A stretch of 64,000 nucleotides of DNA. Origin: Pristiophorus japonicus. Taxonomy: Eukaryota. The translations under genes were made by a program, and so were the position numbers. Positions 8,358 through 64,000 of the stretch are shown piece after piece (position 1 is the stretch's first letter; each line of letters opens with the position of its first letter). The notes under the pieces were generated by a model, which saw only the letters and a list, made by a program, of their open reading frames with translations, did not search any database and had not been told where the DNA came from. The stretch covers positions 1 to 64,000 of the forward strand of contig NW_027254484.1 in NCBI RefSeq assembly GCF_044704955.1, given 5' to 3'.

Positions 8358-8369
8358 TGACAGAAGACC

Positions 8370-8965
8370 GTAAGAAATAGGAGCAGGAGTGGGCCATTCG
8401 GCCCCTCGAGCCCTGCTCCGCCATTTAATACGATCGTGGCCTGATCCGATCATGGACCCAGCTCCACTTCCCTGCCCGCCCCCTTATCGGTTAAGGAACT
8501 GTCTGTCTCTGTCTTAAATATATTCAATGTCCCGGCTTCCACAGCTCTCTGAGGCAGCGAGTTCCACAGATTTACAACCCTCTGAGAGAAGAAATTCCTC
8601 CTCATCTCAGTTATAAATGGGCGGCCCCTTATTCTAAGACCATGCCCCCTAGTTCTAGTCTCCCCCATCAGTGGGAACATCCTCTCTGCATCCACCTTGT
8701 CGAGCCCCCCCTCATAATCTGATACGTTTCGTTAAGATTACCTCTCATACTTCTGAACTCCAATGAGTAGAGGCCCAACCTCCTCAACCTTTCCTCATAA
8801 GTCAACCCCCTCATCCCCGGAATCGACCGAGTGAACCTTCTCTGAACTGCCTCCAAAGCAAAGTGTGTCCTTTGGTAAATACGGAGAGCAAAACTGTGCA
8901 CGCAGTACTCCAGGTGTGGCCTCACCAATACCCTGTGTAACTGGAGCAAGACTTCCCTGCTTTTG
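8370..8965 (-). mobile_element. CR1-a 3' fragment, short form (also ~12925-13520, 34295-34888, 39125-39720, 53826-54418, 58375-58968, 63190-63782)
   Basis: YKSREVLLQLHRVLVRPHLEYCV...AVQRRFTR...RNFFSQRVVNLWNSLP; truncated at CCCTGCTTTT. Confidence 0.9.
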
Positions 8966-9175
8966 TACATACAGGGAATAATACACAAAGATTAAATATT
9001 ATTTCCCGATTATCCCAAGTTCCCCAATCGATACAGTCACAGAGATATTAATCGTTGGCGACGAATATTTAATCCCAGATTACTCCCCCCTCTCTCTCTC
9101 TCTCTCTCTCTCACTCACTGCCCCAATTGCAGCCTATTGAGCTGTTTTAAGATATTTTGAGATCGAGTAAACGTA

Positions 9176-9366
9176 CAGGTGGAGAGGCCGCTCCGGATTC
9201 CGGGGGATTTCCGGATTCCGGAACGTCGTTGCCTGGGCTGAGGTTGGTGGGGTTGGCCAGCTGAGGTTAGTGGGGGGGGACAGAGCGGGGGAGCCGAGGA
9301 GGGCGGGGGGAGAGTCTGGATTCCGAAACATTCCGAATTTTGGAACTCTGGATTTTGGACGCTCAA
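9176..9366. mobile_element. Tigger/pogo-like MITE remnant (also 13730-13922, 35097-35285, 39931-40126, 54627-54817, 59181-59369; right half only at ~21812-21876, ~31708-31769, ~49908-49972)
   Basis: Starts TA|CAGGTGGAG and ends GGATTTTGGACGCTCAA (reverse complement TTGAGCGTCCAAAATCC), resembling recalled Tigger4/Zombi TIRs (CAGGTTGAGCATCCCAAATCC). Has sub-terminal TCCGGA/TTCCGAA repeats; the right TIR lacks its terminal CCTG. Confidence 0.55.
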
Positions 9367-59883: not shown

Positions 59884-60413
59884 CAGTCCCGCCCTCCCCT
59901 TCCCTCAACGTCTATCTGTCCCACCCTCCCCTTCCCTCAACGTCTATCTGTCCCACCCTCCCCTTTCCCTCAACGTCTATCTGTCCCACCCTCCCCTTCC
60001 CTCAACGTCTATCTGTCCCACCCTCCCCTTTCCCTCAACGTCTATCTGTCCCACCCTCCCCTTCCCTCAACGTCTCTCTGTCCCACCCTCCCCTTTCCCT
60101 CAACGTCTATCTGTCCCACCCTCCCCTTCCCTCAACGTCTATCTGTCCCACCCTCTCCTTTCCCTCAACGTCTCTCTGTCCCACCCTCCCCTTCCCTCAA
60201 CGTCTATCTGTCCCACCCTCCCCTTCCCTCAACGTCTATCTGTCCCACCCTCCCCTTTCCCTCAACGTCTATCTGTCCCACCCTCCCCTTCCCTCAACGT
60301 CTCTCTGTCCCACCCTCCCCTTTCCCTCAACGTCTATCTGTCCCACCCTCCCCTTCCCTCAACGTCTCTCTGTCCCACCGTCCCCTTTCCCTCAACGTCT
60401 ATCTGTCCCACCC
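59884..60413 (+). repeat. 32/33-bp RTE-derived VNTR (~16 copies)
   Basis: Same unit as 9880-10052. Confidence 0.95.
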
Positions 60414-63400
60414 CGTGACAGGGACTGCGACTCCCGTATTGGACTATTCAGCCACCTTAGGCCTCGTTTTTAAAAGTGGAAACAAGTCTTCCTCGATTCC
60501 AAGGGGCTGCCTCTAACGATGAGATATAGACAAGTGATATTAACCCTTATACTCATTCCGTTATATACTCTCTGCCCCAATTTAAACAGAGAGAGATATT
60601 TTACGATATTTAGACATTAATATTGACTCATTATCCCCAAGTGCTCCGTGTGCGAAGTATGAGATGTATTAAAATACAGACACTAATATTAACCCCGTCG
60701 ATATGCCCTCTCTCACTCACTGCCCCAATGACAGCATAGTTAGAGAAGAGAAAATAGGTGCAGGAGCAGGCCATTGGGCCCTTCGAGCCTGCCCCACCAT
60801 TCAATATGATCATGGCTGAACATGCAACTTCAGTACCCCACTCCTGCCTTCTCTCCATACCCACCTGATCCCTTTAGCCGTAAGGGCCACTTCTAACCCC
60901 CTTTTGAATATATCCAACGAACTGGCCCCCAACAACTTTCTGTGGGAGAGAATTCCACAGGTTCACAATTCTCTGGGTGAAGAAGTTTCTCCTCATCTCG
61001 GTCCTAAATGGCTTACCCCTTATCCTTAGACTGTGTGAGCCCTGGTTCTGGACTTCCCCAACATCGGGAACATTCTTCCTGCATCTAACCTGTCCAGTCC
61101 CGTCAGAATTTTATATGTTTCTATGAGATCCCCCCCTCATTCTTCTAAACTCCAGTGAATATAAGCCCAGTCGATCCAGTCTTTCTTCATATGTCAGTCC
61201 TGCCATCCCGGGAATCAGTCTGGTGAACCTTCGCTGCACTCCCTCAATAGCAAGAATGTCCTTCCTCAGATTAGGAGACCAAAACTGAACACAATATTCC
61301 AGGTGTGGCCTCACCAAGGTCCTGTACAACTGCAGTAAGACCTCCCTGCTCCTGTACTCAAATCCTCTCGCTATGAAGGCCAACATACCATTTGCCTTCT
61401 TCACCGCCTGCTGTACCTGCATGGCCAACTTTCAATGACTGATGTCCCATGACACCCAGGTCTCGTTGCAACTCCCCCTTTTCCTAATCTGTCACCATTC
61501 AGATAATATTCTGCCTTCCTGTTTTTGCCCCCAAAGTGGATCACCTCACATTTATCCATATTATACTGCATCTGCCATGCATTTGCCCCACTCACCTAAC
61601 CTGTCCAAGTCACCCTGCAGCCTCTTAGCATCCTCCTCACAGCTCACACCGCCACCCAGCTTAGTGTCATCTGCAAACTTGGAGATATTACACTCAATTC
61701 CTTCGTCTAAATCATTAATGTATATTGTAAATAGCTGGGGTCCCAGCACTGAACCCTGTGGTACCCCACTAGTCACTGCCTGCCGTTCTGAAAAGGACCC
61801 GTTTATCCCGACTCTCTGCTTCCTGTCTGCCAACCAGTTATCGATCCCCGTCAGTACATTACCCCCAATACCATGTGCTTTAATTTTGCACACCAATCTC
61901 TTGTGTGGGACCTTGTCAAAAGCCTTTTGTCAGTCCAAATACACCACATCCACTGGTTCTCTCCTTGTCCACTCTCCCTCCTTTTTTAAAAGTGGGGTTA
62001 CATTAACTACCTTCCAGTCCATAGGGACTGATCCAGAGTCGATCGAATGTTGGAAAATGACCACCAATGCATCCACTTTCTGTGGTAGAGAATTCCACAG
62101 GTTCACAATTCTCTGGGTGAAGAAGTTTCTCCTCATCTCGGTCCTAAGTGGCTTACCCCTTATCCTTAGACTGTGTGAGCCCCTGGTTCTGGACTTCCCC
62201 AACATCGGGAACATTCTTCCCGCATCTAAACCTGTCCAGTCCCGTCAGAATTTGACATGTTTCCTGTCAGATCCCCCTCTCATCCTTCTAAACTCCAGCG
62301 AATATAAGCCCAGTCGATCCAGTCTCTCCTGATATGTCAGAAATTAACCCCTCTATGATGTCCTTTCTCACCGGCTGCCCCAATTGAAGCACAGCGAGCT
62401 ATTTCGGAGATACATGAATGTAGAAAGATTCATATGGATCCCAGGTTATCCCAAGTGAGATATATTAATATACCGGCAGTAATATTAACCCTTGAAGGTC
62501 ACCCTCCCTCACACCTTGCCTCAATTGAGAGAGAGTTGGCGGTATTGAGGTATATATTAATATGCAAAGATTAATATTGGTTCCTGATGATCCCAAGTGC
62601 TGTACATGAGATATATTAATATACAGGCAGTAATATTAACCCTTGAAGGTCACCCTCCCTCACACCTTGCCTCAATTTAAGCAAATTGAGGAATTTTAAG
62701 ATATTTCGAGCTCTATGCAAAGACAAACATTAATATTGCTGCCTGGTGATCGCAAGTGCTATATATGAGATATATTAATATACGGGCAGTAATATTAAGC
62801 CCTCACTGATGCCCTCCCTCCATCCCTGCCCCAATTGAGGGAGTTTTGGAGCTATTTCGAGACATATTAATGTACAAACAGTAATATTGACCCCCAGCCA
62901 CTTGGCCTCAGTGCCCCAGGGCCCTCTTGCAGCATTTATTCAGGTGCACTGATCCCTGGGGCACCCCACTAGTTACTGATTGCCGACCCGAGAATGAACA
63001 GTTGTCCCGACTCTCTGTTCTCTGTTAGTGAGCCCATCCTCCATCCGTGCTAATATATTACCCCCCAAACCCCGCGAGCTTTTATCCTGCGCAGTAACCT
63101 CTCATGTGGTACTTTATCGAAGGATTGCTCAAACTGCCTTCGGTCACTGAGCAGGGAAGGGGGTTTGGGTCCACTGGGATTCTCACATCAGGAATAGGAG
63201 CCAGGAGTGGGCCATTCGGCCCCTCGAGCCCTGCTCCGCCATTTAATACCATCGTGGCCTGATCCGATCATGGACCCAGCTCCACTTCCCTGCCCGCCCC
63301 CTTATCGGTTAAGGAACTGTCTAACTCTGTCTTAAATATATTCAATGTCCCGGCTTCCACAGCTCTCTGAGGCAGCGAGTTCCACAGATTTACAACCCTC

Positions 63401-64000
63401 TGAGAGAAGAAATTCCTCCTCATCTCAGTTTTAAATGGGCAGCCCCTTATTCTAAGACCATGCCCCCTAGTTCTAGTCTCCCCCATCAGTGGGAACATCC
63501 TCTCTGCATCCACCTTGTCGAGCCCCCCTCATAATCTGATACGTTTCGATAAGATCGCCTCTCATTCTTCTGAACTCCAATGAGTAGAGGCCCCAACCTC
63601 CTCAACCTTTCCTCATAAGTCAACCCCCTCATCCCCGGAATCAACCGAGTGAACCTTCTCTGAACTGCCTCCAAAGCAAAGTGTGTCCTTTGGTAAATAC
63701 GGAGAGCAAAACTGTGCACGCAGTACTCCAGGTGTGGCCTCACCAATACCCTGTGTAACTGGAGCAAGACTTCCCTGCTTTTGTACATACAGGGAATAAT
63801 ACACAAAGATTAAATATTGTTTCCCGATTATCCCAAGTTCCCCAATCGATACAGTCACAGAGATATTAATCGTTGGCGACGAATATTTAATCCCAGATTA
63901 CTCCCCCCTCTCTCTCTCTCTCTCTCTCTCTCACTCACTGCCCCAATTGCAGCCTATTGATCTGTTTTAAGATATTTTGAGATCGAGTAAACGTACAGGT

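Follow-up and report, generated by a model that had tools for sequence, protein, structure and literature searches.

A tandem and inverted array of C2H2 zinc-finger cassettes with a single upstream promoter candidate in Pristiophorus japonicus

Zinc-finger cassettes in a two-armed module array

The window analyzed here comprises bases 1–64,000 of contig NW_027254484.1 (hereafter C3872; 341,520 bp) from the 5.9-Gb Pristiophorus japonicus assembly GCF_044704955.1, and it contains three copies, A, B and C, of a C2H2 zinc-finger cassette embedded in an array of repeated modules. A map of the array, built from 16 blocks placed across the whole contig, shows that it spans bases 8,373 to about 197,700 (~190 kb), past the window end, and consists of 33 modules, each marked by one copy of block a. 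In 23 of these, block a leads into block b and the module is gene-free; in the remaining ten it leads into block j and a zinc-finger cassette. Gene-bearing and gene-free modules are interleaved. The window holds the start of ten head-to-tail modules, which are unequal in length (3,250–9,762 bp) and in which blocks a and d each occur ten times, 95–100% alike. This agrees with a model-made first-pass annotation of the window, which had described about ten head-to-tail modules, some with and some without a gene; three window modules carry a cassette. That annotation placed the array at 8365–64000; the array is real, but it continues to about 197,700 and turns round near 148–152 kb. The minus strand carries seven cassettes (A–G), as far as 147,356, and the plus strand three (H–J), starting at 152,323, and thus the array has two inverted arms that point away from a center at 148–152 kb. 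The outer flanks of the two arms are 92–95% alike in inverted orientation. Stretches of N adjoin the cassettes in the window.

A second version of the left edge is present on contig C1598 (1–28,769; 28,769 bp). Its flank is 96–98.5% alike to that of C3872, a high divergence for an allele, and it carries four gene-free modules ahead of the copy A position, as against two on C3872. C1598 may represent an allele or a paralogue of the C3872 edge. The locus is multi-copy, as had been proposed, and the module order on C1598 indicates that it is probably structurally variable as well.

The three window cassettes are 4.5–4.7 kb long, with a GC fraction of 0.67–0.77 and an observed/expected CpG ratio of 0.7–1.16. 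Each contains one long open reading frame (ORF) encoding three zinc-finger clusters set apart by two coding variable-number tandem repeats (VNTRs) (Table 1). The Pfam zf-C2H2 family matches the protein with an E value of 1.3e-75, zinc-finger families are the only matches, and by analogy with this family the protein should bind DNA as a transcription factor. The Pfam scan of the protein revealed no KRAB-, SCAN- or BTB-type N-terminal effector domain, and no upstream coding exon was seen, the joint to exon 1 being itself deduced. Six of the ten copies have an ORF that is intact from its ATG (A, 965; B, 994; D, 1,037; E, 996; F, 974; and G, 1,012 amino acids) and four are broken (C, H, I and J). 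Copies C and I, on opposite arms, share one identical 471-bp deletion that removes the ATG and finger 1, such that the earliest in-frame methionine of C is codon 428 of its open frame; the 5′ end of H is cut off by the inversion; and J has a stop at codon 289 followed by a further break downstream. In addition, copy D has lost a zinc-binding histidine (H487Q). The first-pass annotation had reported ~20-finger ORFs open for ~1000 codons, with fingers identical, in the three window copies. The finger number is close to this (16 C2H2 plus 3 C2HC) and no amino-acid change occurs in any finger among A, B and C, but only A and B retain an ATG. The in-frame VNTR lengths were considered as proof of selection and rejected, because the repeat units are themselves multiples of 3 and would keep the frame without it.

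Genome-wide DNA and protein searches recovered the ten array copies and one dispersed copy on contig C37 (C37:25,716,418–25,719,906), with nothing else close among the best candidates scored. The C37 copy is about 3% diverged, frameshifted and wholly within exon 2.

Table 1. Features of the window (positions 1–64,000 of C3872)
Feature	Position	Strand	Basis or remarks
Left part of left arm of module array	8373..64000	.	Block map and module counts; arm goes on to C3872:~147,750; inverted right arm ~152,300–197,700
Two gene-free modules, 4,551 and 3,250 bp	8373..16173	.	LINE-like fragments, 32/33-bp tandem repeat, AT-rich blocks
AATAAA of copy A, candidate poly(A) signal	17041..17046	-	Motif on gene strand
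Exon 2 of copy A as far as readable: 530-nt 5′ UTR, whole CDS, 3′ UTR; CpG island	17218..21685	-	Sequence comparison
ORF A, 965 amino acids, 16 C2H2 and 3 short C2HC-type fingers in three clusters	18258..21155	-	ORF, Pfam
42-bp coding VNTR, Q/H/S/E/N/A-rich linker	18652..18972	.	330–792 nt over ten copies, always a multiple of 3
27/39-bp coding VNTR, S/T/P/L-rich linker	20025..20353	.	171–372 nt over copies, always a multiple of 3
Splice-acceptor AG of copy A	21686..21687	-	X5, X6 and X7 contigs stop matching here; DNA run X3 crosses
Sequence homologous to copy G intron 1 (blocks P5, c, h, start of i)	21688..25403	-	Middle d/e/f part absent from G
Duplication junction: intron-1 sequence meets LINE-like fragment, exon-1 side replaced	25395..25410	.	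Imperfect 9-bp microhomology
ORF B, 994 amino acids, intact	28065..31049	-	Acceptor AG at 31580–31581
Two gene-free modules, first with additional short internal unit	34294..44062	.	Block map
Reverse-transcriptase fragment, LINE-like, spacer block e	42096..42560	-	Pfam RVT_1, E 2.1e-16
Copy C remnant ORF, ATG and finger 1 lost	46481..49586	-	471-bp deletion; acceptor AG retained at 49775–49776
Two gene-free modules and beginning of another	53825..64000	.	Block map
LINE, long interspersed nuclear element; UTR, untranslated region; CDS, coding sequence; nt, nucleotides.

Splice acceptors and a single promoter candidate

At the start of nine of the ten cassettes, 530 nt before the ATG, lies a polypyrimidine tract followed by a CAG splice acceptor, and all three window cassettes open in this way (three exact matches compared with zero expected). 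The cassette is therefore neither self-contained nor intronless; it opens with the end of an intron. Thus, of the CpG-rich, self-contained cassette of ~5 kb that had been described, the size, the composition and the AATAAA (on the gene strand for copy A and again at about 26509) hold, while the autonomy is not supported. The one promoter- or exon-1-like sequence is absent from the window. This candidate is present outside it, upstream of copy G alone, the innermost copy (C3872:142,587–147,356, minus strand). This 414-bp sequence (C3872:148,587–149,000) occurs once on the contig, and the genome gave a single full-length match to it. It contains CCGGAAG-type motifs, which we take to mark an ETS-type housekeeping promoter, and donor-like sites at 148,678 and 148,636 (GAG|GTGAGG) and at 148,614. 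Array homology ends at 148,586, immediately beside it, and at this point the other modules continue as a LINE-like fragment, joined at an imperfect 9-bp microhomology, 28–50 nt from the two nearest donor-like sites. The stretch between the G acceptor and the 414-bp candidate is composed of the start of block i and of blocks h, c and P5, the same blocks that form the array spacers, which indicates that much of the “spacer” is intron 1. By its position and uniqueness the 414-bp sequence is a candidate for exon 1. The exon-2 5′ UTR of copy G also contains one upstream ATG, 46 nt ahead of the main ATG (window equivalent about 21,201, minus strand), which opens a five-codon upstream ORF that is finished before the main start.

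Contigs of four sequencing runs (X3, X5, X6 and X7) were mapped onto window positions 17,218–26,533, a stretch that does not include exon 1. X3 is a DNA run; X5, X6 and X7 are small assemblies (109–164 million letters) from one study, with library type and tissue not on record, and are probably RNA. The X5, X6 and X7 contigs cover the cassette and their match ends at 21,687, 21,687 and 21,684, respectively, that is, at the acceptor, with 49, 1 and 30 unmatched letters beyond it. In contrast, an X3 contig passes straight through (21,617–21,840). A match extending through the AG itself would be expected if the upstream exon also ended in AG. Cover of spacer block h (bin 24,993–25,303) in X3 but not in X5–X7 was set aside as evidence, as the filter can make such holes.

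The contigs also carry a signature of which copy is read. Of 82 variant rows, 40 were taken up; 34 were used and six dropped (three homopolymer and three VNTR). At these sites X5 and X6 each match the copy G allele at 27 of 28 and X7 at 23 of 27, with next-best copies at 20, 18 and 18 in X5, X6 and X7, a score that is biased against copy A because differences were called relative to A. Alleles found only in G are present at 21,493 in X5 and X6 and at 18,569 in X6, and whole-contig mismatch and gap counts likewise fit G (e.g., 8/15 observed, 8/15 for G). The main contigs of X3 lack the G alleles at 17,389, 18,463, 19,125 and 21,493, among others, showing that the non-G copies exist as DNA. X3 contig depths (about 20–37 for the cassette and 104–107 for blocks c and d) are near the assembled proportion of 10:31–34, but such depth is no measure of copy number and was not used.

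These data bear on two alternatives. The first is that a one- or few-copy locus was falsely duplicated in assembly. The contig is small, a second left-edge contig (C1598) exists, some homopolymer differences could be read errors, and X3 may be the assembly's own sample. However, the copies differ by 0.6–1.6% in substitutions, with alleles common to several copies, and also in VNTR length and deletions, and the X3 reads contain non-G sequence, which makes an artifact very improbable. The second is that each cassette is an autonomous gene driven by its own CpG island, for example in the germline or early embryo, with dosage tracking copy number as proposed for D4Z4 or RS447. Every cassette indeed has CpG-island composition, six of the ten ORFs are intact and constrained, and none of the runs is known to be germline; the dispersed C37 copy, moreover, begins 61 nt into exon 2, which may reflect an internal start or, just as well, a truncation. 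Against this, the cassettes open with an intron end, the contigs reach the acceptor and depart there, the alleles indicate one copy, and the modules are unequal and mostly without a gene. We consider autonomous genes improbable, and the complete, intronless, dosage-dependent gene of the first-pass annotation is not supported, as nine of ten cassettes lack the only promoter candidate, four of ten ORFs are broken and the contigs are G-like.

Constraint, mosaicism and the proposed working copy

Selection was assessed over 729 codons outside the VNTRs. The 45 ORF variants divide into 23 nonsynonymous and 22 synonymous changes, and those in finger codons into 6 and 11; given expected nonsynonymous shares of 0.72 (all) and 0.74 (fingers) under the UTR mutation spectrum, the deficits are significant (p = 0.002 and 0.001), although the variants are not independent. 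The dispersed C37 copy, with 33 nonsynonymous to 14 synonymous changes (p = 0.75), fits neutrality and, being also frameshifted and confined to exon 2, was rejected as the parent gene. The mean ratio of nonsynonymous to synonymous diversity (pN/pS) over all ten copies is 0.33, or 0.31 when G is left out; it is 0.20 among the five intact copies other than G and 0.48 among the four broken copies, compared with 0.65–0.87 for the C37 pseudogene. Five of the six finger amino-acid changes lie in broken copies and the sixth is the histidine lost in D, while all five shared variants in finger codons are synonymous. The ORFs thus appear, from these counts, to be under purifying selection.

The insertion and deletion record is similar. 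Outside the VNTRs the ORF has no frameshift: its gaps measure 3, 9 and 9 nt, and another two, of 1 and 22 nt, are probably alignment effects at truncated copies, whose frames run on continuously. The spacers, in contrast, show 26 indel loci of lengths not divisible by 3 in 3,047 nt (10 random copies per block), in agreement with the earlier description of open ORFs beside frameshifted neighbors. Of homopolymer runs of at least 6, none of the 6 in the ORF varies, compared with 9 of 13 in noncoding sequence (p = 0.011). As the ORF has few such runs, part of the contrast between ORF and spacer is sequence context.

A further possibility is that the array is a neutral passenger of recent amplification in a repeat-rich region, its low pN/pS a small-number or sequence-context effect. 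The ORF variants are few and tied together by conversion, homopolymer runs in the ORF number just six, and four of ten copies are broken, all of which would suit such a reading. Yet the finger codons depart from the expected share when the C37 copy, counted in the same way, does not, and the homopolymer contrast between ORF and noncoding sequence points in the same direction; we regard neutrality as quite improbable.

Spacer diversity is 0.9–2.4% and synonymous diversity 1.15%. All copies differ by just 0.6–1.6%, whereas the outer flanks of the arms are 92–95% alike, and C and I have one deletion in common across the two arms. Of 780 informative site pairs, 448 fail the four-gamete test and so do not fit a tree. 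The copies are therefore mosaics, which points to frequent gene conversion.

Taken with the allele match, the most probable explanation, in our view, is a partial tandem and inverted amplification of an ordinary two-exon C2H2 gene, homogenized by conversion and with one working copy. The ancestral gene would have been a non-KRAB C2H2 zinc-finger gene with a noncoding exon 1 and the whole CDS in exon 2. The unit duplicated would have run from just inside intron 1 through exon 2 into the 3′ flank and, because it began inside the intron, promoter and exon 1 would have remained single. Unequal exchange would then have multiplied gene-bearing and gene-free units, and an inverted duplication would have produced the two arms. 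In the samples seen, most of the mRNA would come from copy G alone, which encodes a protein of 1,012 amino acids with 19 fingers. The nine other copies would be promoterless, owing their near-identity and mostly open frame to recent origin and frequent conversion; conversion would tie these silent copies to G, such that they are partly filtered by selection on G, and this could account for their constraint.

Several observations weigh against this one-working-copy explanation. The joint between exon 1 and exon 2 was deduced rather than directly seen, being absent from the joints and loose contig ends listed, and X5–X7 come from a single study in which they are recorded neither as RNA nor by tissue. 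Contigs display the majority path only, with rare variants dropped. A non-G letter appears at 17,843 in X5 and X7 contigs of low depth (10 and 11.6; uncounted); X7 departs from G at 4 of 27 sites, some of its alleles there occurring in other copies; and three contigs over 18,082–18,683 show three to four more differences than G does. Finally, the pN/pS of the intact non-G copies lies below that of the broken copies and of the pseudogene, and their constraint exceeds what silent copies obviously need.

This last point could be accommodated by one promoter serving many last exons or, with less probability, by internal CpG-island starts used in other tissues. In the first case, exon 1 would be spliced chiefly to G, while at certain stages or in certain tissues transcripts would read on and be spliced to F, E, D, B or A. 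The products would have identical fingers and differing linker lengths between the clusters, and selection would act directly on these copies. From the promoter candidate, the seven copies of the left arm all follow downstream in the same orientation, the acceptor is retained in nine of ten copies, and F, E, D, B and A each have their own AATAAA. The low pN/pS of the five intact non-G copies, the uniformly synonymous shared finger variants and the wide range of VNTR linker lengths (Table 1) would also be expected. However, in each of the three probable RNA runs the main contigs resemble G, which carries an AATAAA of its own, and the next acceptor lies about 16 kb beyond; D lacks one zinc-binding histidine and C its ATG, and the VNTR frame is held without selection. 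Overall this reading is unlikely, though the likeliest of the alternatives. In its more ambitious form, complete coding last exons arrayed in tandem as a bank would share a single promoter and noncoding first exon, a protocadherin-like arrangement in reverse, giving isoforms of one transcription factor with common DNA-contacting fingers and a cluster spacing set by the VNTRs, and the bank would be kept functional by selection and arm-to-arm conversion; this, too, we think unlikely. Splicing of exon 1 to several copies would, if true, be an unusual way of varying a transcription factor.

With one working copy or several, the locus provides a natural test of how reading frames are kept up in gene-bearing arrays, by dosage of many genes or by conversion with one working copy. 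As the copies can be told apart by single-nucleotide polymorphisms and VNTR lengths, and the neutral C37 control is in the same genome, the question is directly testable. It also carries a warning that intact array ORFs need not equal many expressed genes: annotation would call six here, of which one may be read.

Related arrays, neighboring genes and repeats

Like macrosatellites, the locus has head-to-tail units of several kilobases in many copies (33 over about 190 kb) and a single-exon ORF, uninterrupted over 965–1,037 amino acids in six of ten copies. Its units are not uniform with one gene each, and the only promoter candidate is single-copy, with G-like contigs in the sampled runs, though a start inside the units may be used in other tissues. 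It resembles D4Z4 and other DUXC-group arrays in its GC-rich tandem units, each with a one-exon transcription-factor ORF (PMC13558733, PMC5687341), and pig DUXC also has gene-free units beside gene copies (PMC13558733). In D4Z4 each DUX4 copy lacks a poly(A) signal and flanking sequence completes the distal unit (PMC13558733). The present array is a mirror image of this, in that incomplete units are again completed at one end copy by unique flank, but the units have an AATAAA and lack promoter and first exon, and the innermost copy is the complete one. Unlike DUX4, the cassettes arose by DNA duplication that included acceptor, intron and 3′ flank rather than by retrogene origin, and unlike D4Z4 they lie in units of unequal length, interleaved with gene-free units, on two inverted arms, and encode C2H2 fingers instead of a homeodomain. 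RS447/USP17 shares gene-bearing tandem units of about 5 kb, but its units each have promoter activity (PMC5687341), whereas here nine of ten cassettes lack the promoter candidate and most modules hold no gene. The locus is not a member of the D4Z4/RS447 type: its units are unequal, mostly gene-free, DNA-duplicated with their intron and arranged in two arms.

Partial gene duplicates under gene conversion are common, as outlined in PMC3449122. As in those cases, part of the gene was missed by duplication and conversion tethers the copies to their source; here, however, the whole CDS was copied nine times and the noncoding exon alone was missed, and so the copies could in principle serve as alternative last exons. 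Inverted arms, arm-to-arm sharing of variants and a multi-copy zinc-finger gene also recall ampliconic palindromes and ZNF280BY, but the arms here are differently ordered strings of modules and not long perfect mirror copies (PMC3403216, PMC3032696). A literature search of main texts, mostly non-subscription, turned up no account of the locus, nor of any bank of zinc-finger last exons behind one promoter.

The left neighbor of the array is a TMEM238-domain ORF (window 230–640, minus strand; Pfam E 9e-17). Exact look-up matched none of four proteins in the protein collection, the TMEM238-type protein being absent from it. On the right flank, Pfam analysis of 81 candidate frames gave three weak TEX29-like and two NDK matches. 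The former are Cys-rich exons with weak TEX29/TMEM190/trefoil matches on the minus strand (C3872:213,332–213,742, 234,071–234,463 and 267,804–267,962), which are diverged and may represent a repeated-domain gene or a small paralogue cluster; the latter are nucleoside-diphosphate kinase exons on the plus strand (C3872:307,988–308,128 and 312,572–312,760). Mammals have a set of GC-rich zinc-finger genes with one coding exon in a comparable setting. These non-KRAB C2H2 genes (ZNF628, ZNF579, FIZ1, ZNF524, ZNF865, ZNF784 and ZNF580/581) lie beside TMEM238 and TMEM190, and in the gene list for horse TMEM190 and TMEM238 adjoin ZNF628, ZNF579, ZNF865 and others (PMC7341496). With TMEM238 on the left and weakly TEX29/TMEM190-like exons on the right, the array may lie in the corresponding region, which is a lead and not orthology. 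Among the 381 matches listed, the best single alignments reach about 40% identity, no more than 10 of 20 code residues agree over five fingers, and no collinear finger code or high identity links the protein to ZNF628, ZNF579, ZNF865, ZNF574 or ZNF771. Searches with residues 1–256, with residues 400–720 among shorter proteins and with the whole protein against representatives returned only generic fingers, and residues 895–965 gave 66 candidates, none at E 1e-8. As generic fingers swamp these lists, an orthologue could exist among unlisted proteins.

The C37 copy, which takes in most of exon 2, sits in opposite orientation between the protease- and RNaseH/integrase-coding parts (pol region) of a long terminal repeat retroelement, with no poly(A) tail in the flank examined. 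Near this pseudogene, C37:25,743,614–25,770,000 contains a direct duplication of 10.9 kb or longer at 99.7% identity, either recent or an assembly overlap. Further zinc-finger ORFs form almost identical pairs split between two contigs (C24:32,800,016–32,800,972 with C25:1,487,781–1,488,737, and C3990 with C1399), suggesting that duplication or double assembly of zinc-finger loci is not unusual here.

Rfam and ARAGORN scans of the window gave no match. The LINE-like reverse-transcriptase fragment of spacer block e (Table 1) is presumably of CR1 type. The 32/33-bp repeat (window 9,880–10,051 and sister blocks) varies from 74 to 692 bp among modules, forms a 5.1-kb array at C3872:319,740–324,846 and sits within a high-copy interspersed repeat that may resemble an RTE-type LINE end. 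The left flank contains minisatellites of 57 bp (2,089–3,228), 40/43 bp (3,910–4,285) and 51 bp (4,285–4,990), and the last of these is found again, inverted and longer, past the right arm at about 200.4–203.1 kb.

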